From Candidatus Saccharimonadia bacterium (GTDB lineage: Bacteria > Patescibacteriota > Saccharimonadia > Saccharimonadales > Saccharimonadaceae), in NCBI GenBank assembly GCA_023257145.1, contig JALRDA010000131.1, forward strand, positions 4,451 through 68,450: DNA of 64,000 nucleotides, written 5' to 3'. The notes under the pieces were generated by a model, which was not told where the DNA came from, did not search any database, and saw nothing but the letters and a program-made list of their open reading frames with translations. Made by a program: the position numbers and the translations under genes. Positions 7,352 through 39,066 of this stretch are shown one piece after another (the first letter of the stretch is position 1; the number at the start of each line of letters is the position of its first letter).

Positions 7352-7425
7352 TGCTACTTGCCAAAACGATGTAAAAAAGTGTACAATAACAAGCAATAGG
7401 GAAAAGGATTTAAGTAAGGGAAGTT

Positions 7426-7722
7426 ATGTTAGACGTTTTTATCACCTCACGAGTGCGCCGGAAAATTGTAGTAGTCTATGCCAAGTATCCAGACTTTCAT
7501 ACTCATGTTCGTGGACTTGCAAAACTAATTAAAGAAGATCCAGGTAATATTCAACGCGAACTAAAGCGTTTGGAAAAAGTTGGATTCTTAAGCTCTGAGA
7601 AGCAGGGCAATACTAAGATTTATTCGACCAACAAGCAGTTTCCGATCTTTAAGGAATTGCAGAGCATTGTGATCAAATCTCAACAGCATGCAGGTCGCCC
7701 AAAACGTTCATCTGATTTGTAA
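7426..7722 (+). CDS. Winged-helix (ArsR/MarR-like) transcriptional regulator
   Basis: The sequence RRKIVVVYAKYPD...VRGLAKLIKEDPGNIQRELKRLEKVGFL...GN.KIY is a typical wHTH. Its stop overlaps the recJ start (TAATG). Confidence 0.6.
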   Translation: MLDVFITSRVRRKIVVVYAKYPDFHTHVRGLAKLIKEDPGNIQRELKRLEKVGFLSSEKQGNTKIYSTNKQFPIFKELQSIVIKSQQHAGRPKRSSDL

Positions 7723-9350
7723 TGACACTATTTGATCAAATACTAAAGGCACGAGGTCTCGAGGGCGAGGCACGTGACCTTTTTTTATCTCCCAGTTATG
7801 ATGCCAAGCATGATCCATTCCTACTTCCTGATATGCAGGCTGCAGTCGAGCGGCTGGTCAAGGCTCATGAAAAGCAGGACAAGATTACCATTTATGGCGA
7901 CTATGATATTGATGGTTTGACGGCAACGACGGTACTGCTTGATGCCTTTGAATCATTCGGATTTTCGCATGTTGACGCTTTTATTCCCAATCGTTTTGTC
8001 GAGGGGTATGGATTAACTATCGACGCAGTCGAGCGTATTGCCCAAACTGGCGCACAGCTGATTGTGACGGTTGATTGCGGCAGTCTTAGCGAAAAAGAAA
8101 TCATTCGTGCTAATGAATTAGGTGTTGATATTATCGTGACAGACCATCATAACGTTGCGCCAATTCAACCACCAGCGGTAGCTGTAATAAACCCCAAGCG
8201 CCCAGATCATCACTATCCATTTATTGACCTTGCCGGCGTCGGCGTGGCATTCAAGCTAGTGCAGGCGTTGCAGACCAGGCTTGATGGATTACCAGTAGGG
8301 CACGAAAAGTGGCTGTTGGATTTAGTGGCGCTGGGGACGGTATGTGACGTCGTGACGTTGGTCGATGAAAACCGGGCGAATGTTTACTGGGGATTAAAGG
8401 TATTAGCACAGACGCGTCGACCCGGTTTAAAGGCATTGATGGCTGTGGCTGCAGTCGAGCCGGAAAAGGTTAATGCGCGCAGTCTAGGTTTTGGGCTGGG
8501 GCCGCGCATGAACGCTGCTGGGCGCCTAGAAACAGCGCAGTACGCACTGGATATGCTGCGAGCAACGGATTCAATGGAGGCATTAGAAAAAGCGCAGCAG
8601 CTAGACGCACTTAACCAATCTCGACGCGCGGACCAGGACAAAATATTTAAGGCAGCAGTGATTCAAGCCGAGCAATATTTGGATGATCCCGTTCTAGTTG
8701 TCAGCCATGCTGACTGGAATCATGGGATTATTGGTATCGTGGCAGCCAAGTTGTTAGAGAAATACAAAAAACCAACCTACGTACTGCAAGAGATGGGCGA
8801 AGAGAGTAAGGGGTCGGCACGTAGCTACGGTGACTTCAGCGCGGCAGACGCCATCCGTGCGAGCGATGATATTATCACCAAAGGGGGTGGCCATAAATTA
8901 GCTGCAGGCGTAACGATGCCGACAAAAAATATTGAAGCGTTTCGTCGTCGGGTTAACGAATTTTATCGATCAAAAGATTTGTTCAATCAAGCTGCATTGC
9001 TGCTGCCGAAAGAGGATATTATTGTAACTAAATTTAGTGATGTGAATGAGTTATTGCTAAAAGAACTAGAACAGCTAGAGCCGTGTGGAAACGGTAATCC
9101 GGAGCCAGTATTTAAAAGCGAAAACATGCTTGTTATGCATTTACGGCGCATGGGTGCTGACGCGCAGCATGTCAAAGTTACTTTGCAGGACGCAAATAAG
9201 AAAACGATGGAGTTTCTGGCATTTAATGCACCTGAGTCATTTTTCGCCGAACCTGGAGAGTATGTGACAATCTGGTTTCAGCCGAGTGTGAATGAATGGC
9301 AGGGGAGACGGACGGTCGAGGGGCGACTACTTCATTTGGAGTCTATGTAG
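7722..9350 (+). CDS. recJ: Single-stranded-DNA-specific exonuclease RecJ
   Basis: DHH family motifs DYDIDGLTA, VDCG and TDHHN are present, with a DHHA1 region GGGHKLAAG. Confidence 0.9.
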   Translation: MTLFDQILKARGLEGEARDLFLSPSYDAKHDPFLLPDMQAAVERLVKAHEKQDKITIYGDYDIDGLTATTVLLDAFESFGFSHVDAFIPNRFVEGYGLTIDAVERIAQTGAQLIVTVDCGSLSEKEIIRANELGVDIIVTDHHNVAPIQPPAVAVINPKRPDHHYPFIDLAGVGVAFKLVQALQTRLDGLPVGHEKWLLDLVALGTVCDVVTLVDENRANVYWGLKVLAQTRRPGLKALMAVAAVEPEKVNARSLGFGLGPRMNAAGRLETAQYALDMLRATDSMEALEKAQQLDALNQSRRADQDKIFKAAVIQAEQYLDDPVLVVSHADWNHGIIGIVAAKLLEKYKKPTYVLQEMGEESKGSARSYGDFSAADAIRASDDIITKGGGHKLAAGVTMPTKNIEAFRRRVNEFYRSKDLFNQAALLLPKEDIIVTKFSDVNELLLKELEQLEPCGNGNPEPVFKSENMLVMHLRRMGADAQHVKVTLQDANKKTMEFLAFNAPESFFAEPGEYVTIWFQPSVNEWQGRRTVEGRLLHLESM

Positions 9351-10399: not shown

Positions 10400-10912
10400 A
10401 TGAAATATAAACAAAATCTAGGTTTCACGATTGTCGAGCTGCTGATCGTTATCGTCGTCATCGGTATTTTAGCGGCAATCACGATTGTTGCATACAATGG
10501 GGTTCAAAACCGAGCTAATGATACGGCAGTCCAGGCGGATTTGCGTAATATCGGCGGTAAGATTAATGAATTTAAGGCAATAAATGATAAGTTACCAGTT
10601 CCGGCATCAGATCTAGCTGGTATGAATCTCAAAGTGTCAAGGAACGCCTATGGCGCTCATTACACACCCGCCGCCGGTAACGAAAATAATCTTATTTACT
10701 GCTACACCTCGCTGACAAACTCGAATGCTACATTTATTCTCGTTGCCGCAGCTAAGTCTGGTAATGTCTACGTTTATAAAGATGGTGGAGTTAAGGTAGG
10801 TGTCGGTCCGCTAGTGACATTTACAAATACGTGTACAAATAATGACCCTGCAATGGTCACTGGCTCATGGTTCTACGCGGGCGGCGCCTGGCAATCATAT
10901 GTCGCTCCGTAG
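10400..10912 (+). CDS. Type IV pilin-like protein with a prepilin N-terminal cleavage/methylation domain
   Basis: The N-terminus MKYKQNLG/FTIVELLIVIVVIGILAAI is a class III signal with the conserved Glu at +5. Confidence 0.85.
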   Translation: MKYKQNLGFTIVELLIVIVVIGILAAITIVAYNGVQNRANDTAVQADLRNIGGKINEFKAINDKLPVPASDLAGMNLKVSRNAYGAHYTPAAGNENNLIYCYTSLTNSNATFILVAAAKSGNVYVYKDGGVKVGVGPLVTFTNTCTNNDPAMVTGSWFYAGGAWQSYVAP

Positions 10913-18868: not shown

Positions 18869-21727
18869 ATGAAATTTAAAGCCAACAGCCGTCGACGCGC
18901 GCTCGAATATGAAAAAGATATCGTCGCACAGTGGAAGAGAAACAAGACATTTGAAAAGTCGGTTGAAATGCGACCGAAAGATAATTCCTATGTCTTTTAT
19001 GATGGCCCTCCGTTTATTTCCGGCGTGCCACACCATGGGACACTTTTAAGCTCAATTGTTAAAGACGTCGTGCCTCGTTATCAGACGATGAAAGGCAAGC
19101 GTGTCGAGCGTGTTTGGGGTTGGGACTGCCATGGGCTACCCGCTGAACGCTATACCGAAAAGAAGCTTGGTATTAATTCACGCGAAGAAGTAATTAATTA
19201 CGGCATTGAGAAATATATCATCGCCTGTCGCGAAAATATGGTGCAAACCAGTAGTCTATGGGAAGACACAATTGACCGAATTGGCCGCTGGGTAGACTTT
19301 AAGGGTGCCTATAAAACCATGGACAAGGAATACATGGAAAGTGTTTGGTGGGCATTCAAGAATCTTTACGAAAAGGGCAAGATCTACGAAGGCGAAAAAG
19401 TACTCATGTACTGTACGCTCGATGCGACACCACTTTCAAAGGCCGAGGTGACGATGGACGCCGGTGCGTACCAGGATGTAACTGACCCAAGTGTGTATGT
19501 GAAGTTTAAATTAACAAGTGGCGCAACACTACTGGCTTGGACGACAACGCCGTGGACGCTGCCGTCAAATACAGCGATTGCTGTGAACAAAGAAATTGAT
19601 TACGTTGAAGTTAAAGTGAACGGTGAACAACTAATTATCGCGAATGAATTAGTTCAAAAAGTTTTGACTGATCAAAAACATCAACCGCTAGACTACGAAA
19701 TTGTGCGTAGTCTAAAAGGTGAAGAGCTGATTGGGGAATCATACGAACCGCTACTAGGTGTCGATCGCGGTGAAAATGCACACAAGGTTTGGCATGCAGA
19801 CTACGTGAGTGTCGAAGACGGTACCGGAATTGTTCATATCGCACCGACGTACGGTGAAGAAGACTTTGCGATGGCGAAGAAAAATAAAATTCCAGTTGTC
19901 CATACGATAGACGCCAATGGCTTATTTACCGAAAGTGACTGGAAAGGCCAAAATGTCTGGGAGATCAACAAGCAAATTGCAAAAGATCTTCATGAGCGAG
20001 GAATTGTGTGGAAGATCGACTATATCCGTCACAGCTACCCACATTGTCACCGCTGCGGCACTAAGCTAATGTACCGTGCACATCCTAGCTGGTTTATGGA
20101 CATCGACGCGCAGCGTGAAACAATGCTGGAAAAGAACGGCAATGTTAATTGGTTCCCAGAACATGTTAAGAATGGTCGCTTTGCAAAAACAATTGAACAA
20201 GCGCCGGATTGGAACCTATCACGAGATCGCTTCTGGGCAACAGCGATGCCAGTTTGGAAGGGTACTGATAAAGACGGGGACACGCATATAAAAGTCGTCG
20301 GTAGCTACGCGGAATTGAAAGAACTAAGCGGTGTCGAACTCGACGATTATCACCGTCCATGGGTCGATGACATCACATTCGAAATTGATGGCGTCACGTA
20401 TAGCCGCATCGACAAGGTGATGGATAGTTGGTTTGAGGCTGGTAGTATGCCATTTGCACAGTTCCATTATCCATTTGAAAACAAGCAGAAGTTTGAAGCG
20501 AATTTCCCCGGTGATTTCATCGTGGAATATATCGGACAGGTTCGTGCATGGTTCTACTACATGCACTCGATGAGCGTTGCCTTGTTTGGTGAAAATTCAT
20601 TTAAAAATGTTATCGTAACCGGTAACGTTGCCGGTAATGATGGCCGCAAGATGAGTAAAAGCTACGGCAACTACACCGACCCGAATGTTTTGATGGATCA
20701 GTATTCTGCCGACAGTCTACGCTTCCTATTGCTGCAAAGTCCGTTGCTAAACGGTGAGGATTTCGCCTTGCAAGATAAAGAAGTGGGTGATGTTGCACGC
20801 AAGCTTTCCATGATCTGGAATATGTACGATTTCTTTACGATGTATGCAGAAGTTGATGGTTGGGAGTTTAATGGCGATTTATCTGATCCATCTGATCATT
20901 TAGAAAATCCGCTCGACCAGTGGATTGTCAGTCGCGTCCATCAATTAACGGCCGAGATTGAAAAACACTTGGATGCCTATGATATTCCGAATGCCGTAAA
21001 GCCAATCTTGCCATTTATCGAAGATGCTAGTAACTGGTATGTGCGCCGTAGTCGACGTCGCTTCTGGAAGTCTGACGAAATCGAAGATAAGGATAATGCC
21101 TATCGGACATTGCACTATGTTCTTGTTCAGCTTGCGCAGGTGATCGCACCGTTTACGCCGTTCCTCGCCGAAGAGCTCTACCAAAAATTAACAGGTGGTG
21201 AAAGTGTTCATTTGCTTGACTGGCCAAAGGTTGGCCACGTGAATGAACTGGTGATCAAGGACATGGAGACGGTTCGTGAATACGTGAACGAGGGGCTAAG
21301 TATTCGTGCTAAGGAGCGCCAAAAGGTTCGTCAGCCACTTGCAAGTGTCACCATTCCAACATTTGGTGAGTTTGTGAACTTCGAAGATATCCTGACGGAA
21401 GAACTGAATGTCAAAAAAGTTATTCAAGGTAAAGAATTGGCATTAGATCTAGCGCTAACCCCAGAACTCAAGCGCGAAGGGTTGATGCGCGAAGTGATTC
21501 GCCATATCCAAAGCGCGCGAAAGGCGGCTGGATTGAATGTCGATGATCGCATTACTGTCGGACTATCAACTGATGATGATGACTTGAAGCGGGCCATCGA
21601 CGAACATCGCAATACCATCAGTGCCGAGGTTCTGGCGGATGACCTGGGCAGTGATATGCGGGAATTGTACCAAAGTGCTGCAAAAGTTGAAGGTGTGATG
21701 CTGGATATTTCGATCGATAAAGCCTAG
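18869..21727 (+). CDS. ileS: Isoleucine--tRNA ligase
   Basis: The class I HIGH-type motif PHHGT and the KMSKS motif are present, along with WDCHGLP. SD aaggagg sits before ATG 18869, 2 nt after the nudix stop. Confidence 0.95.
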   Translation: MKFKANSRRRALEYEKDIVAQWKRNKTFEKSVEMRPKDNSYVFYDGPPFISGVPHHGTLLSSIVKDVVPRYQTMKGKRVERVWGWDCHGLPAERYTEKKLGINSREEVINYGIEKYIIACRENMVQTSSLWEDTIDRIGRWVDFKGAYKTMDKEYMESVWWAFKNLYEKGKIYEGEKVLMYCTLDATPLSKAEVTMDAGAYQDVTDPSVYVKFKLTSGATLLAWTTTPWTLPSNTAIAVNKEIDYVEVKVNGEQLIIANELVQKVLTDQKHQPLDYEIVRSLKGEELIGESYEPLLGVDRGENAHKVWHADYVSVEDGTGIVHIAPTYGEEDFAMAKKNKIPVVHTIDANGLFTESDWKGQNVWEINKQIAKDLHERGIVWKIDYIRHSYPHCHRCGTKLMYRAHPSWFMDIDAQRETMLEKNGNVNWFPEHVKNGRFAKTIEQAPDWNLSRDRFWATAMPVWKGTDKDGDTHIKVVGSYAELKELSGVELDDYHRPWVDDITFEIDGVTYSRIDKVMDSWFEAGSMPFAQFHYPFENKQKFEANFPGDFIVEYIGQVRAWFYYMHSMSVALFGENSFKNVIVTGNVAGNDGRKMSKSYGNYTDPNVLMDQYSADSLRFLLLQSPLLNGEDFALQDKEVGDVARKLSMIWNMYDFFTMYAEVDGWEFNGDLSDPSDHLENPLDQWIVSRVHQLTAEIEKHLDAYDIPNAVKPILPFIEDASNWYVRRSRRRFWKSDEIEDKDNAYRTLHYVLVQLAQVIAPFTPFLAEELYQKLTGGESVHLLDWPKVGHVNELVIKDMETVREYVNEGLSIRAKERQKVRQPLASVTIPTFGEFVNFEDILTEELNVKKVIQGKELALDLALTPELKREGLMREVIRHIQSARKAAGLNVDDRITVGLSTDDDDLKRAIDEHRNTISAEVLADDLGSDMRELYQSAAKVEGVMLDISIDKA

Positions 21728-21747
21728 GCACTAAAATAGCCTGCTCA

Positions 21748-21780
21748 AGCGCCTCGGAGTGATCCGGGGTGCTTTATTGT
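21748..21780 (+). terminator. Intrinsic terminator after ileS
   Basis: An 11-bp stem agcgcctcgga/tccggggtgct (two G-U pairs) with a GTGA loop is followed by ttattgtt. Confidence 0.6.
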
Positions 21781-21846
21781 TGGTCTGACATCAAAGATTA
21801 CGCTTGTGTGTAGCCATAAGCGTTATTGACTTTTTTATAAAAAGTG

Positions 21847-21875
21847 TTGACATATGTTTTATAATTATGTATGAT
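21847..21875 (+). promoter_or_regulatory. Putative sigma-70 promoter of the TasA-like cassette
   Basis: TTGACA (21847-52), a 17-nt spacer, then TATGAT (21870-75), in an AT-rich spacer about 110 nt upstream of the ATG. Confidence 0.55.
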
Positions 21876-21983
21876 TACCGATGTGTCTTATGAAAGTCAT
21901 AAGTAACAACCCAGATGTTTTGGGGTAGCAATGTAATTTTCAGACCTTCTATTGTGGCGATTGTCACAAGAAAGGGGACAATT

Positions 21984-22520
21984 ATGTCCTCCAACATTAA
22001 CAACACACGCAAAAAGCGGATCCTCGGATCGGCTGCAGCCATCGCGGGTCTCGGCATTGCGGTGGCGGCGTTCAGCCCAATTGCCGGCGCCAACTTCAGT
22101 GACTCGAAGACCGGTCGCATCGACGCGACCGCCTCGACGCTGACCATCGGCTTGTCGGACGACAAGAACAACGTCAACACGTTCGATCTCGACTACGACA
22201 ACCTGACGCCGGGGCAGCCCATGTCCAGGACCATCTACGTCAAGAACAACGGCAGCATCCCGGCAGCGACCAAGGTCGGCTACCCTCTCACAGAGGGGGT
22301 GACGCCGGTCGGTGTCAATCTGGACGAGCTCAAGGTTGGTGTGAACGGTACGCAGGACATGGTTCCCGCATCGCAGTTCAATACCATCAACCTCGGAGTG
22401 CTTCAACCCGGCGAGACCAAATCGGTCAACCTGACGATGCTGCTCCAGACCAACGACAACAACTGGCAGGGCAAAACCTTTGGGGCAACCCTCACGGTCA
22501 CCGGCGAGCAAGTCGGCTGA
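21984..22520 (+). CDS. TasA/camelysin (peptidase M73) family secreted fibre-type protein with a SipW-cognate signal peptide
   Basis: The signal peptide is KKRILGSAAAIAGLGIAVAAFSPIAGA/NFSD (compare TasA ..WAAFND). Motifs A.TLT.GL, NLTPGQ, VKNNGSI and the C-terminal NNWQGKTFGATLTVTGEQ parallel TasA motifs. SD aagggga sits before ATG 21984. Confidence 0.78.
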   Translation: MSSNINNTRKKRILGSAAAIAGLGIAVAAFSPIAGANFSDSKTGRIDATASTLTIGLSDDKNNVNTFDLDYDNLTPGQPMSRTIYVKNNGSIPAATKVGYPLTEGVTPVGVNLDELKVGVNGTQDMVPASQFNTINLGVLQPGETKSVNLTMLLQTNDNNWQGKTFGATLTVTGEQVG

Positions 22521-22537
22521 CGCAGGATCTTGCGCTA

Positions 22538-22582
22538 GCAGTGGACACTCTCTTCCTTTTTTGGAAGGTGAGTGTCCACTGC
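22538..22582. terminator. Long perfect stem-loop without a U-tail after the TasA-like gene
   Basis: The arms gcagtggacactc..cttcc / ggaag..gagtgtccactgc pair for about 19 bp around a tttttt loop. The sequence after it is gacacaaaa. Confidence 0.45.
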
Positions 22583-22680
22583 GACACAAAATTTACTATT
22601 GAAATGATCGTAAGGTTCCGAACGTATTCTGAATCTTACGCACACGTCCATAGACAATCCAATATATGTTAGGAGTGGTG

Positions 22681-23103
22681 ATGAAGTACCGCCGGTATGT
22701 GCTGATCTCAGCAGGAATATTGACCGCCGGTTTGATTGCTACAAGCCCGGTTGCTAATGCGGCATGGCAAGACAGCCGTCACGGCAATGTCTCGGTTACA
22801 GTAAAAATGAACGAGATACCAAGTATTAACGTAGTGAGGCCGACTTCGCCGAATAGCGAACCTCAGCCCATTAGCACGGTACCAGTAATGGCGCCTATTG
22901 CTCCAGTAGTGACAACAAAATCCACATCTGGTCCTGCGCCCACTTCGGACGCACCCGCGCTTCCGAAGGAGCAAACAATTGACCCAGCATCCACTACGAA
23001 AGAATCGCCGACAGCGCAATCCGGCGCAGAGCCTGAGGCTTCAACCACAGCAACTTCGCCAGCCGGAGTTGCAGCCGAAGAAACAAAGAAGGTCGGTCCT
23101 TAG
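22681..23103 (+). CDS. Secreted Pro/Thr/Ala-rich protein with a SipW-type signal peptide
   Basis: SD aggag sits before ATG 22681. The signal is KYRRYVLISAGILTAGLIATSPVANA/AWQD (the A-[FW]-x-D junction as in TasA), followed by a low-complexity P/T/A/S tail. Confidence 0.6.
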   Translation: MKYRRYVLISAGILTAGLIATSPVANAAWQDSRHGNVSVTVKMNEIPSINVVRPTSPNSEPQPISTVPVMAPIAPVVTTKSTSGPAPTSDAPALPKEQTIDPASTTKESPTAQSGAEPEASTTATSPAGVAAEETKKVGP

Positions 23104-23590
23104 GGCTGTATCTGCCTGCGTTATATCTGTTATGATTTTACTTGTCGCTGCGGCCGTATTTGCTACCGGAGTAAAATCGTTCCGTATCGGATCGGGTTCC
23201 ATGGAGCCTACCATCCCCGTTGGCTCACTCGTTATTGCAACGCCTGCACCTGACGTCAAAGTCGGAGATGTCATTCTTTTTCCCGGCAATCACGGTACTC
23301 TAACCGTCCACCGCTATATCGGTGATGCGGATGACGGTAGTGTGCAAACGCAAGGCGATGCGAATGCGACACCTGATATTCATGAGCACCCGCTTCAAAA
23401 GAGCGAAGTCATGGGAAAAGTTGTCATGCAGATGACACTGCTGAGTCCATCAGTGTGGATGAGCATTCGCGGCCTCGTTATCGCGCTGATGATTATAGTA
23501 ATCATTGCGTGCTGTATTATGTGGCCAAAAAGTGACGGCGAGGATTTGTCGAAAAACCCAAAAGTGGAAGACCACGCTCTGACACATTAA
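22979..23590 (+). CDS. SipW-type (archaeal/ER-type) signal peptidase I; start uncertain
   Basis: Motifs GSGSMEPTIPVGSLV, GDVILF, HRYIG, TQGDANATPD and V.GKV are present, with a C-terminal TM helix. ATG 22979 would overlap the previous ORF by 125 nt. The alternatives are TTG 23069 or ATG 23132. Confidence 0.78.
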   Translation: MTQHPLRKNRRQRNPAQSLRLQPQQLRQPELQPKKQRRSVLRAVSACVISVMILLVAAAVFATGVKSFRIGSGSMEPTIPVGSLVIATPAPDVKVGDVILFPGNHGTLTVHRYIGDADDGSVQTQGDANATPDIHEHPLQKSEVMGKVVMQMTLLSPSVWMSIRGLVIALMIIVIIACCIMWPKSDGEDLSKNPKVEDHALTH

Positions 23591-23725
23591 CCCCGACCGA
23601 CTTTTCGGTCAGCGTTCCGAGCATTGCTCCGCTGACGAAACGTCGGCGGGGTATTTGCTTTCCGAACTATTGTATATGCTTGTGCTTGGGAGTATAAATG
23701 AGCGTATAAACAGGAAAACAGACAT

Positions 23726-27055: not shown

Positions 27056-27124
27056 ATTTGAGTGTGGTATAGTAGGCGCAAAGTAATACTGCATGTGGAG
27101 TGCGGGAAAGCGAGACAATTCAAT

Positions 27125-29998
27125 ATGGCATTACAAGTTCGACGCTCGTCGTCAATCAAGGTTCGACTGATAACAACTTTAATTGCTGTGTTCGCACTTG
27201 TCGCGCAGCCACTGTATGGATTCGTCTCGGCGCAGATCGTAGATGCGGCACCCGTCGATACTCACGTAGTCGTGAATGAGATTATGGCATTTCCTCAAGA
27301 TGGTCAAAATGAGTGGATCGAACTATACAATCCAACCAATGCAGACGTGTCACTTGTAGGTTGGAATATTATCTTCGGTGGCGGACAGCAGTATGCCATA
27401 CAAACACCCGTCATTGCGGCTAAGAGTTACGCAGTGGTCGATGGGCCCGACGCAAATAGCTATATCAGTAATGATAGCGAGACTATTGGATTAGCTAATA
27501 CAAATGGTGTGACGGTCGATTCTGTGACGTATTCTGCGATTACTCAAGGGAAGTCATACGCACGTTCGTATGATGCGGCTGATACATTTACTGCACAAGC
27601 CACTCCTAGTAAAAATGCAACTAATGGCCCTGTGCCAATCGCTGCTTGCGCTACAACATCACAGGTGCACAGCACAAGCCTGACCGCGTGGGATCGAGGC
27701 GACACGCGAGCAAATGGTCACAATGAATTAGTGTCTGGTGGCTTGCGAGTATATACGGACGGCAGTACTGACGAAGGGTCTCGCACGGATGGAGCTCCGG
27801 GGAATTGGAACACTGATAAAGCAGCGGGATATCATGCACTTAATATCCCTTTGTCAAAGATTGGTCAGCCTGCTATTGAGTTCGCCTCCACGGCAGGCGG
27901 ATTGCCTGGTTTGCAATTAGGACTAGACCGTGATGGTAATGGAACCTGGGACGGATACCTCGTTAATGAAGGCAATCTATACGGCGCGAATAACTGGTGG
28001 GTCAATAAGGATGGTTTCGGTGTGCCTGCTGGCGGCGGCTATAAATCGCTCGGAAGCCTTAGCCAGTACCTTGCGGCAAATCCAAACGCTGTCGTACTAA
28101 GTTTTGGTTATAGTCTAGGATCAGGAGTAAAAGGTGATGTCGTTATTAGTAAGATCACCGCTGGTTGTACGGATTACACATTTGGACTTGATAAAACAGC
28201 GCCTGCGGTTCCATCTGTGAGTTTCTACGATCAAAACACAACGCAAAAATATAGCGCTGGCTTTACCGCGACGGAAAACTTTACTTTCAAGCTTGCGAAT
28301 GCACAGTCTGACGAAACAGCTCGATATCAGTTGAAATACTGGAATGTCATTCCGGGATCAGGATATAACGGCTCTGATCGTGCATGGTCGCTAAATGATA
28401 TGGCGGGTTATTCGTCTGCGCTCGGTGTTTACAATGATCGATTTAGTCAGGGTGAAGGCAAGCATTACTTTAGCTTTAGCGCCTGTGACGCGGCAGGAAA
28501 TTGTTCTGACTTTTCGCAGCCATTCGAGATTACCTATGATAAGACTGCACCAACTGACCCAGCAGGCCTCCAGTTATTTACAAAGGCTGGAAAGCAAATT
28601 ACCAATGGCTACACCAATGCATATGACGTCACAGCAAAATGGACCGCTAGTAGTGACGTGAATGGCCTTTCGTACCAATACAAGTACTGGAATACTATTG
28701 CGAGTAGCGCATATAACAAATCAGAAGCTAATGCAGAGTACTGGAATGTGGGCACGGGAACGACTAACCCTGGTGTATTCAACCAGGGCGAAGGGCAGCA
28801 CTACCTAGCTGTTCGCAGTATTGATAACGCTGGCAATGTATCCGCATGGACTGATTCGTTTGGCGTGATCTACGATGCCACTAAGCCAATGATTGCCGCA
28901 TCTGCGGACAAAGATACGACTGTAAGCGGTACAAAGACGTTTACGATCAACCAAACAGAAGCAAACCCTTCGACTTTATATGTTGAATATATGGAAAAGA
29001 ATCCTGCTGGCGTATGGCAAAAGAAACTTGGTAAGGAGTTTACTGGAAATACTGCCGATCTCGTCGTTGATACAACGAAGTGGAATGATGGCTTGCATCA
29101 GATAAAGGTGACTAGTAAAGATAAAGCTGGCAATAGCGCAGGTTATTCATTTACGGTAACTGTCGCAAATCCTCAGCCAATGGTTGTTGGTGAAAACTTC
29201 AACACATACGCTGGAGCGGATTACAAAGGTATTAGTGTTGGATTCTCTATCGATAACTTTAAGACGGTAAATGGCGTTTCGGTGTCATTGTATGATGCTG
29301 CCGGCAATTTGCTTGTAGAGAATGTGCACAATACGAAATTGTTGGATCTGATTAATGATGATGGTGTAAAACAATTAAGTACACCATTTATCGTCACACC
29401 TGGAACATACAACGAAGAATATTGGCAGCCGGGTGCTCGTGAATGGAAAGCTCAAGACAAGCCAGCGAAAGCTGTCATTGCCGTAACTGGCACTAATAGT
29501 GCTGGGCTGCCAGCGACACGATCGGTTGACATCCTGACACTGACAGAGCCAGATGGTGTTATGTTTGATGATACACTACCAACGATAGTGAACCTTCCGC
29601 CAGTAGTGGATGAAGATGATGACGAGTCTGTTCCTGTGAGCGGAAATACGAACGGATCGACAACTGGGACATTACCTTTGGTAGCACCGATCATCTTGGT
29701 GAACACACTCCCTGGCGCAACGACCTTCCTTGGCAATGTGTTTGATACGAGTTTTGCAGCCGGTGCAGCGGATGCTGGCACGACTCCTGCATCGGACAAC
29801 AATGCAGCTGTTCTTGGTACGCAAGATAAAAAGACATCAACGCCTCTGGCGGATACAGCAGCAATCGTGACTGCGGACAAAAATGGTGGTATCTTTAATC
29901 TTGCATGGTACTGGTGGGTTGTATTGTTCGCCGCGGCAATTTCTGGCTGGCTATTACTCGCAGCAGTTATTCGACGCATTCGAGGCACTGAACTGTAA
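27125..29998 (+). CDS. Large surface protein with a lamin-tail domain, repeated Ig-like modules and a C-terminal WYWW-TM anchor
   Basis: The signal anchor is RLITTLIAVFALVAQP. The LTD signature is VVVNEIMAFPQDGQNEWIELYNPTNADVSLVGWNI. Repeated modules contain ..Y.YKYWN...QGEG.HY......D.AGN.S. The C-terminus is NLAWYWWVVLFAAAISGWLLLAAVIRRIRG. Confidence 0.8.
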   Translation: MALQVRRSSSIKVRLITTLIAVFALVAQPLYGFVSAQIVDAAPVDTHVVVNEIMAFPQDGQNEWIELYNPTNADVSLVGWNIIFGGGQQYAIQTPVIAAKSYAVVDGPDANSYISNDSETIGLANTNGVTVDSVTYSAITQGKSYARSYDAADTFTAQATPSKNATNGPVPIAACATTSQVHSTSLTAWDRGDTRANGHNELVSGGLRVYTDGSTDEGSRTDGAPGNWNTDKAAGYHALNIPLSKIGQPAIEFASTAGGLPGLQLGLDRDGNGTWDGYLVNEGNLYGANNWWVNKDGFGVPAGGGYKSLGSLSQYLAANPNAVVLSFGYSLGSGVKGDVVISKITAGCTDYTFGLDKTAPAVPSVSFYDQNTTQKYSAGFTATENFTFKLANAQSDETARYQLKYWNVIPGSGYNGSDRAWSLNDMAGYSSALGVYNDRFSQGEGKHYFSFSACDAAGNCSDFSQPFEITYDKTAPTDPAGLQLFTKAGKQITNGYTNAYDVTAKWTASSDVNGLSYQYKYWNTIASSAYNKSEANAEYWNVGTGTTNPGVFNQGEGQHYLAVRSIDNAGNVSAWTDSFGVIYDATKPMIAASADKDTTVSGTKTFTINQTEANPSTLYVEYMEKNPAGVWQKKLGKEFTGNTADLVVDTTKWNDGLHQIKVTSKDKAGNSAGYSFTVTVANPQPMVVGENFNTYAGADYKGISVGFSIDNFKTVNGVSVSLYDAAGNLLVENVHNTKLLDLINDDGVKQLSTPFIVTPGTYNEEYWQPGAREWKAQDKPAKAVIAVTGTNSAGLPATRSVDILTLTEPDGVMFDDTLPTIVNLPPVVDEDDDESVPVSGNTNGSTTGTLPLVAPIILVNTLPGATTFLGNVFDTSFAAGAADAGTTPASDNNAAVLGTQDKKTSTPLADTAAIVTADKNGGIFNLAWYWWVVLFAAAISGWLLLAAVIRRIRGTEL

Positions 29999-30077: not shown

Positions 30078-30977
30078 GTGAAAGTCGCGTCCAAAAAAAT
30101 GAAGAAAGCTTCACTGAAAACCCATTTGCATCGACAAGTGAAATTAGCGGTGGTTCCACATAAGGCAAACCACTATAGGCCGCATCTGGTGCGCCGCGTT
30201 GGACTGGCGTTGATTCTTCTAGCGGTTGTAGGCCTAAACGCCGGATATAATGCAAAGACGACCGGAACTGTTTTGGGCGATAAAGCGAACATTACCATCG
30301 ATGCTTTAGCGCAGGCGACAAATGATGCTCGTGAGCAGAATAGTCTACGTCCGCTTATAGTAGATCAAAAGCTAAATCAGGCTGCGTATCTAAAAGCTAA
30401 AGATATGTTTGCAAAGCAGTACTGGGCGCACGTCGCACCAGATGGGGCACAGCCTTGGCGGTGGTTTGCGGATGCCGACTATAACTATAGTGTCGCTGGT
30501 GAAAACCTAGCGAAAAACTTCTATACCGTCGAGTCGACAACTGACGCATGGATGAGTTCATCAGAGCATCGCGCAAATATACTCGGACAAGATTATACGG
30601 AAGTCGGGTTTGCAGTTATGAGCGGTTCGCTGCAGGGGAAGGAGACAACGATTGTGGTTGCACTGTATGCTGCACCAGCCGTCAGCGTTGCCGGCGCGCA
30701 AGACGTAGCGCCAGCGGCAGTCGCAATTGCTCGGCCACCCGGTGGGGTTGTGTCTCAGTTTGGCGTGATTATGCAGTCACTTAGTCCTGCCGCCACTGGT
30801 TCGATAGTCCTGCTGATGATCGCGGGTCTCGTTGCGTTCACTGCGCACCTATATCGAAATAAACTTCCTAAGTCGCTGCGGCAATCGTGGTATCGTCACC
30901 ATGGCGCATACAAGATGGCAGGACTTGCGTCGATTATCGTCGTTGTTGCGACGGTGTATAGTGGCGGACAGATCTAA
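30078..30977 (+). CDS. CAP/SCP (PR-1-like, YkwD-type) domain protein with membrane segments
   Basis: Motifs ..YWAHV.PDG..PW.W........AGENLAKNF....S..DAWM.S.EHRANIL...YTEVGFAV are present. It has an N-terminal anchor and two C-terminal TM helices. Confidence 0.85.
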   Translation: MKVASKKMKKASLKTHLHRQVKLAVVPHKANHYRPHLVRRVGLALILLAVVGLNAGYNAKTTGTVLGDKANITIDALAQATNDAREQNSLRPLIVDQKLNQAAYLKAKDMFAKQYWAHVAPDGAQPWRWFADADYNYSVAGENLAKNFYTVESTTDAWMSSSEHRANILGQDYTEVGFAVMSGSLQGKETTIVVALYAAPAVSVAGAQDVAPAAVAIARPPGGVVSQFGVIMQSLSPAATGSIVLLMIAGLVAFTAHLYRNKLPKSLRQSWYRHHGAYKMAGLASIIVVVATVYSGGQI

Positions 30978-32191: not shown

Positions 32192-32228
32192 AACCCCGCA
32201 TGAAATAATGCGGGTTTTTTATTTTTTT
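32192..32228 (+). terminator. Intrinsic terminator after rplU
   Basis: The stem cccgca/tgcggg with an 8-nt loop is followed by ttttttattttttt. Confidence 0.8.
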
Positions 32229-32300
32229 ACATCATCCAGTCGATCGTGCTCATGCTATACTGAGGCAAGTAAAACAACGTATCGACAGTGGAGGCCGAGG

Positions 32301-34889
32301 GTGAGAATAAAGCAGACAGTTCGCAGTAAGATGATGCGAGGATTTTTTGTAATAACGGCACTTGTTCTTGGTCTGACGTCGGCTGTATCGATCAGTGGTA
32401 ATAATCAAGCATCGGCTTTGGAGTCGTGGCAAACTGATGGCTGGTATCAGATTAGTACGGGATCGTCGCATACTTGCGGTATTTCTCACGATCAAAAAAG
32501 CGTGTACTGCTGGGGGTATTCATATGGTGGTGGGTTGGGGAGCGGAGACTCTGAACCGTACCAACCTATGCCCGGTGCAGTTGACACGAGCGGCATATTG
32601 ACGAGTAAGACCTTCACGTCGATTGCGACAGGGCAGGATATGACCTGCGTTATTGCAGACGGACAAGCCTACTGTTGGGGGCGTAGAACTGGCGATGGTA
32701 CGTATGAATCTCGGCTGGCGCCAGTTGCGGTGAATACTTCGGGTGTTTTGGCTGGTAAGGTGCTCAAGTCGGTTACTATGGGCCATGGCCATACCTGCGT
32801 GCTTGATACTGGCGGTAAAGCCTACTGCTGGGGTGGCACGGAAGGTGGTGAGCTTGGAGTAGCGGGGCAACTATACTCGTCCACACTGCCTGTAGCAGTA
32901 GACACGGACGGTGCTCTAGCTGGCAGGACATTAGTGTCAATTCAAGCAGGTACTCGGCATACGTGTGCAATAGATGTGGCCGGTTTGGCATACTGCTGGG
33001 GATATGTCGACAATGGACAATTGGGCGACAATCCGTCTCAATCTGAACTGGAGCAGGGTGGATTTAAAGCACCCGTAGCTGTGGATATGTCCACAGTGTT
33101 AGCGGGAAAGACGATTCTCTCAATTGCAACACCATATGGGTATACCTGTGTAATTGCGTCTGATCATCGCGCATACTGCTGGGGCGTGAACAACAATAGT
33201 CAGCTAGGAGATGGAACGTCTGTCGCAAGTACTATGCCCGTTGCGGTTGCTACCAGCGGGGTTTTGGCGAGTAGAGATTTAACTCAAATTTCTGGTAACG
33301 GCGACGATAGTGTTTGTGTCCTTGGTACTGATGGGCTAGCCTACTGTTGGGGTGGAAATCGATACGGACAGCTGGGCAATGGAACTGAGCGCTTTGGTGA
33401 GTATTCGGAGCTGCCGACTGCAGTAAATACTAGTGGCGTTTTGGCTGAACGAACATTGAAAAATCTGTCTGGTGGTGCATACCGAATGTGTAGTATCGAC
33501 GTGTCTAACACTGCATTCTGCTGGGGTGATAATGGTGCTAATACACTTGGCAACTCCGGTCACGAAAGTGACGCCTATGTCACTTCGCCTGTAAAGGTTG
33601 GCGTGGCTGATCCGTTTATCGAATCGTATTCTCCGGTAACTAGACTACGAACAGGTGACGGATCAAAGGTGGGTAGAGTGTATGGACAGTTTTTTTCTGC
33701 TGACGCAAGGGTATTTGTCGGCACTCAAGAGGCAGTTGTAACTTCAAGTAGTCCGTATACGCTACTTTACACCATTCCGGTATCTAACAATGCTGGGGTG
33801 AGGGATGTGAAGGTTGTAAATCCTAATGGAGCATCTGCTACAAAAAATGGAGCAATAACATATTTTGCGGCTGATGAGCCAAGCATAGCCAATGTTGATT
33901 TTGATTATGGTGATCAAAATATGCTTATTATCAACGGGACAGGATTTTTATACGATCCGCTTGATCGATATAATTTCGAAGAAGCATACGACCGCTCGTT
34001 AGTGACCTTTAATGGAGTTAAACTTGCATATTGTGTTCAAGGCACTGGTCGCACGCTCGAACAAGAGCAGCAGTACATGACTGATAAGACTGTTGTTACC
34101 GACACCGCACCATGCTACTACATGTATGACACCGATTACAACGGGCTGATTACGTACACGAAAGCAATTGTTTTGCTTCCGGAAGATTATGACATTAGCG
34201 CAGGTGGGACGGTCTCTGTAAATGGTTCACCTGAGTTTTCATTAGGGCAGTCGACGCCGCCATCGACTGAGCAGCCAGCGCCAACTGTACCAGCAGTCCC
34301 GCCTGTTGTGAGCCAGAATCCTGCAAATGATACCAAGGTTCAGTCATCCGATAGTGCGGTCAAACCAAAGCCAGTGACGGTATCTAATACTCAGCAGGGG
34401 TCATTTGTAGAGATTGCCAAGAATGCACCGATTGAAGATCGTATCTCGGCAAAGGCTATCAGAATCAACGGCAATGCTATTGAAAGCAATATGTCGATTA
34501 GCGCACTTCCGACATTTAGTGGAGCTGCACCAGCTGGCAGCAGGATAACAGTGACGGTTCATTCGGATCCTGTAACATGCGGGGCAGTTACTAAAAGTGA
34601 TGGCACGTGGTCATGCACGTTACCGACGAAGCTTCCGGTGGGGCAACATACGGTTCGCTTTGCGGCAGTGACGCTTGATGGTGAAGAAGTCCAGTATGGT
34701 CCATACGACGTAACGGTAGTAGATAATGAGCGAGAGGCTGCGCAAGCTTCGTCGTTAGACGCTACTAATCGTGATGACGAAGCAAAAAAACAAGCGCCGA
34801 ATATTATGCAATCTTTACTTATTGGTCTTGGGGGACTGATATTGGTCGGCGTCATTATCGCTGCTGCAATCAGATTCCGACGTCGATAA
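32301..34889 (+). CDS. Surface protein with a 7-bladed RCC1-repeat beta-propeller, IPT/TIG-like and Ig-like domains and a C-terminal TM anchor
   Basis: There are seven repeats ending in ..YCWG....G.LG. (CWGYSYGGGLG, CWGRRTGDG, CWGGTEGGELG, CWGYVDNGQLG, CWGVNNNSQLG, CWGGNRYGQLG, CWGDNGANTLG). The signal is FFVITALVLGLTSAVS and the C-terminus is LLIGLGGLILVGVIIAAAIRFRRR. SD ggagg sits before GTG 32301, with ATG 32331 as an alternative start. Confidence 0.85.
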   Translation: MRIKQTVRSKMMRGFFVITALVLGLTSAVSISGNNQASALESWQTDGWYQISTGSSHTCGISHDQKSVYCWGYSYGGGLGSGDSEPYQPMPGAVDTSGILTSKTFTSIATGQDMTCVIADGQAYCWGRRTGDGTYESRLAPVAVNTSGVLAGKVLKSVTMGHGHTCVLDTGGKAYCWGGTEGGELGVAGQLYSSTLPVAVDTDGALAGRTLVSIQAGTRHTCAIDVAGLAYCWGYVDNGQLGDNPSQSELEQGGFKAPVAVDMSTVLAGKTILSIATPYGYTCVIASDHRAYCWGVNNNSQLGDGTSVASTMPVAVATSGVLASRDLTQISGNGDDSVCVLGTDGLAYCWGGNRYGQLGNGTERFGEYSELPTAVNTSGVLAERTLKNLSGGAYRMCSIDVSNTAFCWGDNGANTLGNSGHESDAYVTSPVKVGVADPFIESYSPVTRLRTGDGSKVGRVYGQFFSADARVFVGTQEAVVTSSSPYTLLYTIPVSNNAGVRDVKVVNPNGASATKNGAITYFAADEPSIANVDFDYGDQNMLIINGTGFLYDPLDRYNFEEAYDRSLVTFNGVKLAYCVQGTGRTLEQEQQYMTDKTVVTDTAPCYYMYDTDYNGLITYTKAIVLLPEDYDISAGGTVSVNGSPEFSLGQSTPPSTEQPAPTVPAVPPVVSQNPANDTKVQSSDSAVKPKPVTVSNTQQGSFVEIAKNAPIEDRISAKAIRINGNAIESNMSISALPTFSGAAPAGSRITVTVHSDPVTCGAVTKSDGTWSCTLPTKLPVGQHTVRFAAVTLDGEEVQYGPYDVTVVDNEREAAQASSLDATNRDDEAKKQAPNIMQSLLIGLGGLILVGVIIAAAIRFRRR

Positions 34890-36690: not shown

Positions 36691-37290
36691 TTAGAATGTT
36701 CGAATGCCTGTGAATGGGAAGATGCGGAATTTGACTGGACCAACGATATCGTAATAAGGGATGAATCCTAGTCCACTGCGTGAGTCATATGAATAATCAC
36801 CTTGGCGATGATCACCTGCGACAAACAGTGCACCGTCGGAAACAATTGTATCGACATTGCCGCTCGTTGGTGAGGTTGGCTCGCTGTTGTGTGAATCATC
36901 AGGATGGATGCCTTCGGGGTGTGCGTCGTTATAGACGGTCATTGTGCCATCTTTGACGACAACGCGCTCGCCGGGAAAGGCGATAACTCGTTTAACGATA
37001 TATTCATCGCCAGTCCCAACGTTGTAGCGCGGGTTTTTAAAGACGATTACTTGGCCACGTTCAGGGATGTAAGGTTTGTTTTGTAGCTGCGCCCATGTTG
37101 CTGGTAAGCGGCTGACGATTAGGCGATCGCCTGTGTACATCGTTGGCTCCATGCTCGGGCCGACAACATTAAAGCTACGAAAAATGAATGCATTAATTAA
37201 GACAGTGCCTATCAAAACGCAGGCAATAAACACGAGTATGCCAACTGTGTCTTTAATAAAGGGGTGTCGTTGTAAAAATGAGGCTTCCAC
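36691..37290 (-). CDS. lepB: Signal peptidase I (LepB type)
   Basis: Motifs GPSMEPTM, VKRVIAFPGERV and GDHRQGDYSYDSR are present, with an N-terminal TM helix. Confidence 0.9.
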   Translation of the reverse strand: MEASFLQRHPFIKDTVGILVFIACVLIGTVLINAFIFRSFNVVGPSMEPTMYTGDRLIVSRLPATWAQLQNKPYIPERGQVIVFKNPRYNVGTGDEYIVKRVIAFPGERVVVKDGTMTVYNDAHPEGIHPDDSHNSEPTSPTSGNVDTIVSDGALFVAGDHRQGDYSYDSRSGLGFIPYYDIVGPVKFRIFPFTGIRTF

Positions 37291-37395: not shown

Positions 37396-39066
37396 ATGAA
37401 ACCACAACGACACTCAATCGACGGATTTGTTCCACGCCGAGCTGGTAGCACTTTGGGCGAACAACACCCCTCACAGGCAGGTGACCTTCGTCGCCGACAT
37501 GCTCAGCAGGTAGGCGGACTACAGCGACCGGCTGCTCAATCAAGTGCTTCAACTGCGACAGTGCAGCAAGGTTCTGCTCCGTTACGCTACAGTGACCGTG
37601 GACTTGCGAGACGTGATATCGACGAGTCTCTCAGTAGCATTGGCGATGCCGCACCCGAAGTACCTAAAAAGCGCAAATGGTTATTCCGAAAAAAAGCGGC
37701 AGCCTTGCCAGCTCGAACGGGCAAGCGTCGCTGGGTGAAGTGGGCGATTATTGCCGCTGTTATACTGCTCGGACTTTTAGGTGGCTGGCTGGCCTATAAG
37801 ACAATTAATGCCAGCGGTAATATATTTAAGGGCAATATCCTTGGTTTAATTCAAAGTCAGCCCTTAAAGCAAGACCAAAATGGACGCAGTAACATCCTTG
37901 TACTGGGCACATCGGAAGATGACCCAGGGCATGGTGGGGCATTTTTGACCGACTCGATGATGATTGTGAGCATTGATCAAAAGAACAAGACGACTACTAT
38001 GTTTAGCATTCCTCGTGATCTGTATGTCAAATACGGCATGGCGTGTAATAGTGGTTATGCGGGTAAGATTAATGAATACTTTAACTGTGTAAACGAAGAT
38101 TACACCTCTGCAGAGGCAGAGCAGGAGCGTATTACAAAGACACGTGAATTTATCGGCGATATTTTTGGCATGGATATTCAGTATGGTGTTCATGTAAATA
38201 ATACTGTCATCAAGGATGCGGTAGATGCAGTTGGCGGAGTGGACGTTGATGTGCAGGGGAGTAACGGTGATCCTGGCGTACTTGACCGAAATTTTGACTG
38301 GCGCTGTAATTATAAGTGTAATCTGGTGAAGTACGATAACGGCGTTCATCACTTAGACGGCGAGCATGCGCTATTCCTTGCTATGGCGCGCGGTAGTACC
38401 GAACCGACATACGGACTTGGTAATTCTAACTTTGACCGCGAGAAAAACCAGCAAAAGATTATTATCGCGCTGAAGGAAAAAGCAGTGAGTACCGGGACGT
38501 TGACTGATCTTGGAAAGGTTACTGGATTAATCGATAGTCTTGGGAACAATCTGCGCACTAACTTTGAAACCAGCGAGATTCGTACGTTGATGACACTAGG
38601 GTCTGAAATATCTTCATCAAATATCAACTCAATTAATCTCTACGGCGGTGAGGATGCGGTGTTTGTCAGTGGCCCATACGGTGGGGCAAGTGTCGTTATG
38701 CCTGCTGCGGGTATCTTCAATTACTCGGAAATTCGCACGCATCTCAAACAAAAACTAAGCACCGATCCAGTGACTCGTGAGGGTGCAAAAATTATTGTTC
38801 TTAATGGATCGGGTGTTGCTGGGGTTGCTCAAACAGAGGCCGATAAGCTGACTGAATCTGGCTTTATCGTATCAGATGTCGGTAATGCGCCAGATGGAAC
38901 ATACGCGAGTGTAGAAATATATAAGGTTGGCGAGGGTATGAGTGGAACAAAAGCGCGCCTAGAATCCAACTTCAACGTCAAAGTCAAAACAACTGCACCG
39001 CCACTTACGGTTTCGCAGGATACAAACTTTGTAATTGTGATTGGCGAAGACCGTTCATCAAACTAA
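37396..39066 (+). CDS. LytR-CpsA-Psr (LCP) family cell-envelope phosphotransferase with a LytR_C domain
   Basis: It has an Arg-rich cytoplasmic tail, a TM helix, the motifs NILVLGTSEDDP..TDSMMIVSID....T..SIPRDLYV, and a C-terminal region KIIVLNGSGVAGVA..EADKL. Confidence 0.88.
   Translation: MKPQRHSIDGFVPRRAGSTLGEQHPSQAGDLRRRHAQQVGGLQRPAAQSSASTATVQQGSAPLRYSDRGLARRDIDESLSSIGDAAPEVPKKRKWLFRKKAAALPARTGKRRWVKWAIIAAVILLGLLGGWLAYKTINASGNIFKGNILGLIQSQPLKQDQNGRSNILVLGTSEDDPGHGGAFLTDSMMIVSIDQKNKTTTMFSIPRDLYVKYGMACNSGYAGKINEYFNCVNEDYTSAEAEQERITKTREFIGDIFGMDIQYGVHVNNTVIKDAVDAVGGVDVDVQGSNGDPGVLDRNFDWRCNYKCNLVKYDNGVHHLDGEHALFLAMARGSTEPTYGLGNSNFDREKNQQKIIIALKEKAVSTGTLTDLGKVTGLIDSLGNNLRTNFETSEIRTLMTLGSEISSSNINSINLYGGEDAVFVSGPYGGASVVMPAAGIFNYSEIRTHLKQKLSTDPVTREGAKIIVLNGSGVAGVAQTEADKLTESGFIVSDVGNAPDGTYASVEIYKVGEGMSGTKARLESNFNVKVKTTAPPLTVSQDTNFVIVIGEDRSSN

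Follow-up and report, generated by a model that had tools for sequence, protein, structure and literature searches.

A 64,000-nucleotide stretch of contig JALRDA010000131.1 (the window) was analyzed around a three-gene cassette that probably encodes an extracellular fiber of the TasA type, assembled by donor-strand complementation. In this reading, g1 would encode the fiber subunit, g2 a strand-only initiator or cap, and g3 the signal peptidase that exposes the donor strands. The transcription unit spans 21847–23663 and consists of a promoter, g1, two conserved RNA hairpins, g2, g3, and a terminator. The features from which a sequence-only reading of the window had started, namely three co-oriented genes, the PIAGA/NFSD and PVANA/AWQD junctions, the SGSMEP, HRY, and GDAN motifs, and a C-terminal hydrophobic helix, are all present in this unit.

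The proposed mechanism begins with export of g1 and g2 by Sec, after which the membrane-anchored Ser/His peptidase g3 would cut g1 after ...GA and g2 after ...NA. Cleavage would expose N-termini of the form x-[F/W]-x-D-S-x-x-G, behind which hydrophobic residues alternate. We infer from the precedent of TasA and AbpX that g1 polymerizes by donor-strand complementation: the N-terminal segment of one g1 would enter the incomplete β-sandwich of the next, and the protein would polymerize head to tail without ATP. Because g2 has a donor strand and lacks an acceptor domain, it would fill the free groove at one fiber end only and so may act as an initiator or a cap, and its Pro/Thr-rich tail would form a flexible stalk that crosses the cell wall or sits on it. 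The strong conserved promoter would yield much g1 and little g2 and g3, to which the hairpin behind g1 and the RNA element in front of g2 may contribute. The fiber may function in matrix formation, bundling, or attachment.

The candidate fiber subunit g1

The start of g1 was placed at ATG 21984, where the context GAAAGGGGACAnnnATGTCC is kept in nine orthologous loci; a longer open reading frame (ORF) from 21915 was rejected on the same ground. The signal region reads ...SPIAGA/NFSDSK, with cleavage predicted behind ...PIAGA. The mature protein has 142 aa and a pI of 4.4 and begins with NFSDSKTGRIDATASTLTIGL, the proposed donor strand. This N-terminus, shown as NFSDSKTGRIDATASTL or NFSDSKTGRIDATA, aligns with that of mature g2 (AWQDSRHGNVSVTV) and that of mature TasA (FNDIKSKDATFASGTL). 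The donor-strand signature of the TasA superfamily (TasA, AbpX, AbpA, CanA, and threads), an aromatic residue at position 2, an acidic residue at position 4, and alternating hydrophobic residues, is present in both g1 and g2. The aromatic-2/acidic-4 signature is reported to be structurally critical in the donor strand of AbpX (bioRxiv 10.64898/2026.01.04.697558), and TasA has the same (AFND).

A word-index search for homologs of g1 returned two hits and only one relative, P0002, which is 45% identical and carries a precomputed PF12389 match, and the same kind of search with a 54-sequence profile gave seven matches. An exhaustive profile search of 1.84 billion cluster representatives retrieved 332 members of the g1 family, mostly 170–190 aa long and 20 of them below 1e-30; no homolog above ~45% identity to g1 was found among these representatives. 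A peptide-pattern genome scan that required A[NK]F and IP found no g1 relative, the patterns being too narrow, as the GTDB orthologs carry ADF and IA. The most conserved feature of the family is P-x-S-G-A / x-F-[ST]-[AD]-S at the signal cleavage site. PF12389 is matched by 25 of the 54 relatives and TIGR04088 by two (both at E <= 0.01); 18/54 match the TasA model, and four match TIGR04090, the BsaA SipW-dependent family.

Comparison of the g1-family profile with PDB sequences gave AbpX as the best match (2.1e-5), followed by the TasA fiber 8AUR (4e-5) and TasA 5OF1 (1.8e-4), and the alignment to TasA begins at the Phe in position 2 of mature TasA. AlphaFold modeling of g1 yielded an all-β sandwich with a mean pLDDT of 81.9 and a core above 90. 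Residues 37–53, the 17 that follow the predicted cleavage site, are unstructured and of low confidence in this monomer model, which gives an indirect hint of donor-strand polymerization. The sequence-only reading had singled out the 178-aa protein for a fold comparison with TasA, and the cryo-EM TasA fiber 8AUR is indeed its best PDB match in Foldseek (E 4.5e-5, probability 1.00, TMq 0.54). The next matches are donor-strand pilins (Fim, Pap, CfaB, Csu) and the archaeal bundling pilus 7UEG, and the jelly-roll/Ig-like β-sandwich core is recognizably TasA-like. Profile and model comparison place g1 in the TasA superfamily as a compact and divergent member, and its mature size is nearer to AbpX than to TasA.

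Peptidase_M73 is the sole Pfam name attached to the g1 family, which could suggest that g1 is a camelysin-type secreted metalloprotease activated by g3. We give this idea hardly any credence: the PF12389 match covers only residues 12–92, that is, the signal peptide and the first strands, and the mature protein is an all-β sandwich whose sequence contains neither a His-rich nor a HExxH-type motif. The designation of M73 as a protease is itself doubtful, TasA being a structural fiber protein.

The partner g2: a strand-like segment and a tail

The second gene starts with AGGAG-N5-ATG, and the signal region of its product reads ...SPVANA/AWQDSR. Mature g2 has 113 aa (15% Pro, 26% Ser+Thr) and begins with the donor-strand-like AWQDSRHGNVSVTVKMNEIP; beyond the first ~20 mature residues it continues as a low-complexity tail rich in Pro, Thr, Ser, and Glu. 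Across 11 cassettes, g2 keeps only three things: a signal peptide, a strand-like segment of the form x-[FWYL]-x-[DAST]-[ST]-x-x-G-x-[VI]-x-[VI]-x-[VI]..IP, and a Pro/Thr/Ser/Glu-rich tail of variable length.

The N-terminal profile of g2 was aligned with the g1 family by hhalign, which gave a probability of 96.3% and an E-value of 1.6e-9 over 29 columns. These columns run from the last part of the signal peptide across the cleavage site to mature residue 13, and what g1 and g2 have in common is confined to the cleavage region and these first ~13 residues, with position 2 aromatic and Asp at position 4. A hidden Markov model (HMM) of the signal-end/strand segment, built from the same g1 and g2 proteins, matched at E < 0.01 only g1 and g2 proteins in the window and ~1 Mb of Saccharibacteria DNA. 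The A-[FW]-x-D junction that had been noted as common to both precursors is real and extends into a longer profile match. Reading it as the beginning of a donor strand is preferable to seeing in it a recognition site for the peptidase alone.

Published work has shown that TasA fibers arise through donor-strand exchange and that TapA has an N-terminus which is similar to the TasA donor strand and able to nucleate assembly (PMC9674648, PMC10151520). The N-terminus of g2 likewise resembles the donor strand of its subunit, and g2 therefore looks like an analog of TapA. Homology to the Ig-like domain of TapA was not found: g2 matches no Pfam or NCBIfam family, and its tail is of low complexity. At best it is a minimal functional analog of TapA, and it is not a homolog.

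In two of the related loci described below, L002 (2261–2890) and L095 (5735–6553), g2 contains an extra globular insert of ~110 aa between Pro-rich linkers, with the motif PFDWNWTY...C..VT.AFPSNLP...WTVTRL.VHGTNY.W.G.L.CGN; the g2 of the window is without it. This insert might be a tip or adhesin domain. L095 also encodes a nearby LPXTG-like protein (7260–8291, minus strand) with a similar F[IV]PWS[AE]F motif.

The signal peptidase g3

The reading frame of g3 is open over 22979–23590 (203 aa) and contains the motifs GSGSMEPT, VHRY, and QGDANA; its hydrophobic segments at residues 43–61 and 163–181 correspond to N- and C-terminal membrane helices. Orthologs begin with ~8 basic residues ahead of the membrane helix, and their genes share 4–35 nt with the end of g2, which indicates TTG 23069 as the likely start, with an overlap of 35 nt in the window. 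An alternative start, TTG 22979, is preceded by a perfect AAGGAG-N7. The public gene call (ATG 23201, 129 aa) was rejected, since it starts at the Met inside SGSMEP and loses both the catalytic Ser and the membrane anchor. This misannotation would hide the enzyme from family searches, and the 129-aa public product has no Pfam match on record.

The 203-aa translation scores 69.7 bits against TIGR02228, the archaeal/ER-type signal peptidase I family (E 2.5e-19, residues 45–175; cutoff 51.85). S44, H81, D97, and D103 are invariant in 25 homologs, with the Ser lying in GSGSMEPT, the His in VHRY, and Asp in GDANA, as a Ser/His enzyme with Asp would have them. Human SEC11A/C match g3 best in the PDB, both in sequence and in fold (model pLDDT 84). 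The Bacillus SipW equivalog NF046067, with a cutoff of 190, gives only 37.1 bits. The SipW-type peptidase of the sequence-only reading is thereby borne out at the level of type: judged by these models, g3 is SipW-like and not a SipW ortholog.

A separate, normal LepB had also been proposed and is confirmed by a full-length PF10502 match. It carries SMEPT and VKRV motifs, as a Ser/Lys enzyme does, and g3 has VHRY in place of VKRV; this Ser/Lys versus Ser/His contrast rests on the window's own LepB. From linkage and homology we infer that g3, rather than LepB, is dedicated to g1 and g2 and cleaves both; the linkage in 14 loci, the restriction of the segment HMM to g1 and g2, and the separate LepB gene lend this indirect support.

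Recurrence of the cassette

The order g1, g2-like gene, peptidase gene was found in 14 independent loci (the window, L002, L006, L008, L009, L010, L015, L018, L028, L066, L095, L096, L097, and L099). Nine loci lie downstream of ileS, eight of them with full cassettes (the window, L006, L010, L015, L018, L028, L066, and L097), and the ninth, L100, on a partial contig with g1 alone. Cassettes also occur elsewhere, in L002 after ftsK and in L095 after a penicillin-binding protein (PBP) gene, and the high-GC loci L003 and L004 contain more distant M73-like/peptidase pairs. Family-model matches and co-occurrence of the genes in related genomes, neither of which the sequence-only reading could do without, were thus both found.

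Between the window and L006, g1 is 40% and g3 41% identical, compared with 73% for the isoleucyl-tRNA synthetase (IleRS) encoded by the neighboring ileS (18869–21727 in the window). Divergence of the cassette is far faster than that of IleRS, as is typical of surface proteins, and fits with surface components being under diversifying pressure. In L018, ~1.6 kb with only spurious-looking ORFs (7360–8930) separates ileS from the cassette, where the window has a gap of ~250 nt; this spacer could be the remnant of an insertion or rearrangement.

Weighing the fiber reading

Several results weigh against a TasA-type fiber. PF12389 scores g1 at 19.8 bits (E 7.6e-4), below its gathering threshold of 22.5, and the TasA equivalog NF046066 gives 16.7 bits for a cutoff of 450; g1 is accordingly not a TasA ortholog. 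The 'TasA/camelysin-like' label of the sequence-only reading stands at the superfamily level, where the AbpX and TasA profile matches and the 8AUR fold match lie, and fails at these two family thresholds. A SipW-cognate signal was not recovered either, as TIGR04088 matched neither g1 nor g2 at E <= 1. Sequence matches of g1 are confined mainly to its N-terminal half, 18 of the 54 relatives also match 'choice-of-anchor D' and HYDIN-like Ig models, and the fold match is moderate (TMq 0.54), with generic Ig-like/PapD-like domains scoring nearly as well. For g2, no LPXTG, transmembrane (TM) helix, or wall-anchor motif was found, and an anchor role for it is speculative. The Ala residues at −3 and −1 of both precursors would equally suit LepB. 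Finally, the distribution is patchy, with g1 within 4.5 kb of ileS in only 4 of 80 GTDB Saccharibacteria ileS loci.

Such results could also be accommodated if g1 were a monomeric secreted or wall-associated surface protein of the Ig-like/CARDB-like kind, for instance an adhesin or coat protein, g2 an unrelated Pro-rich wall protein, and g3 merely a co-transcribed second peptidase. Every TasA-family score of g1 itself is sub-threshold, many relatives match choice-of-anchor D, HYDIN/VesB-like, and CARDB models, and the Foldseek E-values of PapD-like/ASH domains come within two orders of magnitude of that of the TasA match. This explanation, however, leaves the conserved post-cleavage segment of g1 and g2 without a role, whereas the same aromatic-2/acidic-4 segment is the donor strand in TasA and AbpX (PMC9674648; bioRxiv 10.64898/2026.01.04.697558). 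It also sits poorly with the unstructured state of this segment in the g1 monomer model, and the strict linkage of three genes in 14 loci favors a functional unit. We therefore regard a monomeric surface protein as unlikely and retain the donor-strand fiber as the probable product of the cassette.

Promoter and RNA elements of the transcription unit

An alignment of nine cassettes from different genomes revealed conservation of the −35 and −10 hexamers, the A-rich upstream tract, the ~100-nt leader, and the ribosome-binding site and start context (Table 1). The arms of the leader hairpin vary between loci and yet stay complementary, by an uncounted, by-eye impression. The promoter is near-consensus. 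The proposal that it alone serves all three genes holds insofar as no second promoter was found in the unit, although two conserved hairpins lie between g1 and g2. Blocks of TTGAnA and CCATAG, ~45 nt apart, are conserved before g2 and were considered as a second promoter, which was rejected, as there is neither a conserved −10 nor a promoter-like site. Two further terminator-like hairpins lie past ileS, at 21747–21823. The unit is insulated on both sides because these hairpins lie upstream and the terminator-like hairpin lies downstream.

Table 1. Features of the transcription unit and the separately encoded LepB; positions are those of the window.
Feature	Position	Strand	Description
Promoter	21847..21875	+	TTGACA-17 nt-TATGAT, sigma-70-type, A-rich tract 5'; 11/12 consensus positions
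5' untranslated leader, ~100 nt	21876..21983	+	Small hairpin directly before conserved ribosome-binding region GAAAGGGGACAATTATG
g1, 178-aa precursor	21984..22520	+	Proposed major subunit; signal peptide residues 1-36
GC-rich hairpin, 19 pairs	22538..22582	+	Minimum free energy (MFE) fold; 18 nt past g1 stop codon
Structured RNA element, ~75 nt	22592..22665	+	Upstream of g2; RNAalifold and covariance model
g2, 140-aa precursor	22681..23103	+	Proposed minor partner; signal peptide residues 1-27
g3, type I signal peptidase, 173 aa	23069..23590	+	ER/archaeal-type (SipW-like); TTG start
Intrinsic-terminator-like hairpin, 13 pairs, T-rich tail	23625..23663	+	Ends the unit
LepB	36691-37290	-	PF10502, 103 bits, full length

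The GC-rich hairpin behind g1 is not followed by a U-tract, and each of the 11 cassettes that were folded has a similar hairpin in the corresponding position. We propose that it acts as a 3' stabilizer of the g1 message or as a partial terminator. The pap and fim operons also have a hairpin past the major-subunit gene, and in both Fim/Pap and the present cassette such a hairpin could set the stoichiometry.

The second element, present in 11/11 cassettes examined, has the layout ATTGAnA...ATAAGGnTCCGAA-loop-TTCnGAGCCTTAT...CCATAGCAA. RNAalifold predicted 14 pairs for it, 10 of which show compensatory double changes. A covariance model of the element, R1, found matches only inside cassettes in ~1 Mb searched, including three loci outside the model-building set. 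Plus-strand scores were 60–71 bits in 13 of the 14 cassette loci (32.6 bits in L028), and minus-strand scores 24–52 bits. A search of Rfam gave no match for the intergenic RNA elements. The palindromic element was also considered as a DNA operator, which is less likely since G-U pairs occur and the plus strand scores far above the minus strand. It could be an element for processing, attenuation, or translational control. The simplest reading of the unit would be one transcript whose g2–g3 part is attenuated or processed, hence the excess of subunit.

Codon usage of g1

The G+C content at third codon positions (GC3) of g1 is 0.816, compared with 0.46 +/- 0.06 for 57 ORFs of the window (z = 5.9), and its codons end in C or G. 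The values for g2 (0.475) and g3 (0.494) are ordinary for the window. The same pattern, with g1 at 0.79–0.99 beside ileS at 0.47–0.57, was found in every orthologous locus with an in-frame g1 call (besides the window, n = 10: L002, L006, L015, L028, L066, L095, L096, L097, L099, and L100; L018 was left out). The bias is old and maintained, and not a simple recent import, because the orthologs are only ~40% identical, so that synonymous sites should have equilibrated. Codon bias through translational selection was rejected as its cause, since GC3 is low (0.38–0.43) in rpsB (ribosomal protein S2), tsf (EF-Ts), and a type IV pilin gene. Repeated re-import of g1 from high-GC donors is unsupported, as no homolog above ~45% identity was found among the 1.84 billion representatives. 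Our guess is that selection on the stability or structure of the g1 mRNA lies behind the bias.

The composition of g1, together with the patchy spread of the cassette among Saccharibacteria and the related M73-like/peptidase pairs of the Actinobacteria-like high-GC loci, could point to a recent import of the cassette, or at least of g1, from high-GC bacteria such as actinobacterial hosts, with no settled function. We consider this quite improbable. In the window, g2 and g3 have native GC3. The closest relatives of g1 all lie in Saccharibacteria-like contexts, usually downstream of ileS, and have the same high GC3 at ~40% identity; no homolog above ~45% identity was found among the cluster representatives. 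Conservation of the promoter, leader, and RNA elements also speaks against a recent import.

Genomic context

The IleRS encoded next to the cassette shares 70–86% identity with its counterparts in 80 genomes, almost all of them named Candidatus Saccharibacteria or Saccharimonadales, and the window therefore belongs to a Saccharibacteria genome, probably an environmental one. The same contig is present in an ENA metagenome assembly. Of the reduced genome and epibiotic cell assumed by the sequence-only reading, the phylum-level setting is supported by this placement, and an epibiotic lifestyle would follow from the phylum.

Other cell-surface genes are abundant in the window (10400–10912, 27062–29998, 30078–30977, 32208–34889, and 37396–39066). 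They encode, among others, a type IV pilin-like protein (MKYKQNLGFTIVELLIV...), a 978-aa protein with lamin-tail and Big_13 domains, an 893-aa RCC1-repeat/TIG/Big_13 protein, a CAP-domain protein, and a LytR-CpsA-Psr protein.

Relation to known systems

The cassette resembles tapA-sipW-tasA of Bacillus subtilis in combining a β-sandwich subunit, a secreted partner with a donor-strand-like N-terminus, and an ER-type Ser/His peptidase with a C-terminal membrane helix. Both mature subunits start with A/x-F-x-D (AFND in TasA), and in both systems the partner gene overlaps the peptidase gene at its end. The order, however, is subunit–partner–peptidase here and partner–peptidase–subunit in Bacillus. 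Mature g1 is shorter than TasA (142 versus 234 aa) and falls below the PF12389 and TasA thresholds, g2 consists of a strand and a Pro/Thr-rich tail only, with neither an Ig-like domain nor TapA homology, and g3 is not a SipW ortholog (37 versus 190 bits). The conserved RNA hairpins between the g1 and g2 genes, the extreme GC3 of g1, and a Saccharibacteria host with a reduced genome further distinguish the present system.

AbpX of Pyrodictium abyssi, from a compact AbpX-like clade of the TasA superfamily (PDB 9SJ2; bioRxiv 10.64898/2026.01.04.697558), the best PDB sequence-profile match of the g1 family, is similarly small when mature (163 versus 142 aa) and likewise has an acidic pI, and a TIGR02228-type signal peptidase gene adjoins the subunit gene in both systems. 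The peptidase at AbpX loci, in contrast, is reported to have 10 TM helices (bioRxiv 10.64898/2026.01.04.697558), whereas g3 has two, and the D+E content of ~15% compares with 9.9% here. The P. abyssi locus comprises only abpX and the peptidase gene, while other abpX-like loci include accessory genes. The preprint lists Thermoproteota, Bacillota, and Chloroflexota, and no Patescibacteria (bioRxiv 10.64898/2026.01.04.697558).

Chaperone-usher pili (Fim/Pap) and archaeal bundling pili (AbpA/AbpB), which are structural neighbors of the g1 model, use the N-terminal donor-strand complementation of an Ig-like subunit that is proposed here. The minor protein AbpB was proposed to supply the first strand (PMC9245690); unlike g2, which has none, AbpB contains three β-rich domains. 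Fim/Pap differ from the present system in that no usher or periplasmic chaperone is encoded here, the cell is monoderm, and no sequence homology to Fim/Pap was detected. The SipW-dependent families TIGR04088 and TIGR04090 (TIGRFAMs/NCBIfam) share with the cassette a secreted protein with a distinctive signal/cleavage region and an adjoining archaeal-type peptidase, but g1 and g2 of the window match neither model, and the Saccharibacteria subfamily is a separate clade.

Patescibacteria are among the phyla with PF12389 homologs in a 2022 survey, which also described TasA homologs beside SipW-type peptidases (PMC9245690). The basic idea of TasA homologs adjoining such peptidases, Patescibacteria included, is thus already known, and full-text literature searches turned up no work on a system of this kind in Saccharibacteria. 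What is new here is a Saccharibacteria-specific subfamily in a conserved operon, a strand-only partner, operon-specific RNA elements, and the codon anomaly.

Implications

According to work cited in PMC9674648, most of TapA is dispensable. This fits g2, from which a donor strand carried by a flexible tail would seem to be enough. With one small subunit, a strand-only partner, and a peptidase, the cassette would be a convenient model for the initiation of TasA-type fibers. The GC3 of 0.79–0.99 in g1 and the uncatalogued operon-specific RNA element may matter independently of whether a fiber is made.

Saccharibacteria are obligate episymbionts, and to our knowledge the surface appendages known from them are type IV pili. 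A wider proposal, which we hold to be rather doubtful, is that the cassette specifies a minimal, Saccharibacteria-specific donor-strand fiber that serves the episymbiont as a tether or matrix toward host or sister cells, separately from type IV pili. It would be started by a bare-strand initiator on a Pro/Thr-rich tether, and selection on the mRNA would hold the GC3 of g1 at 0.8–0.99, forming with the leader and hairpins a post-transcriptional program for massive, skewed expression. If the donor-strand fiber itself is real, a second self-assembling and ATP-independent fiber would add a new candidate for how environmental Saccharibacteria attach, aggregate, or form a matrix.

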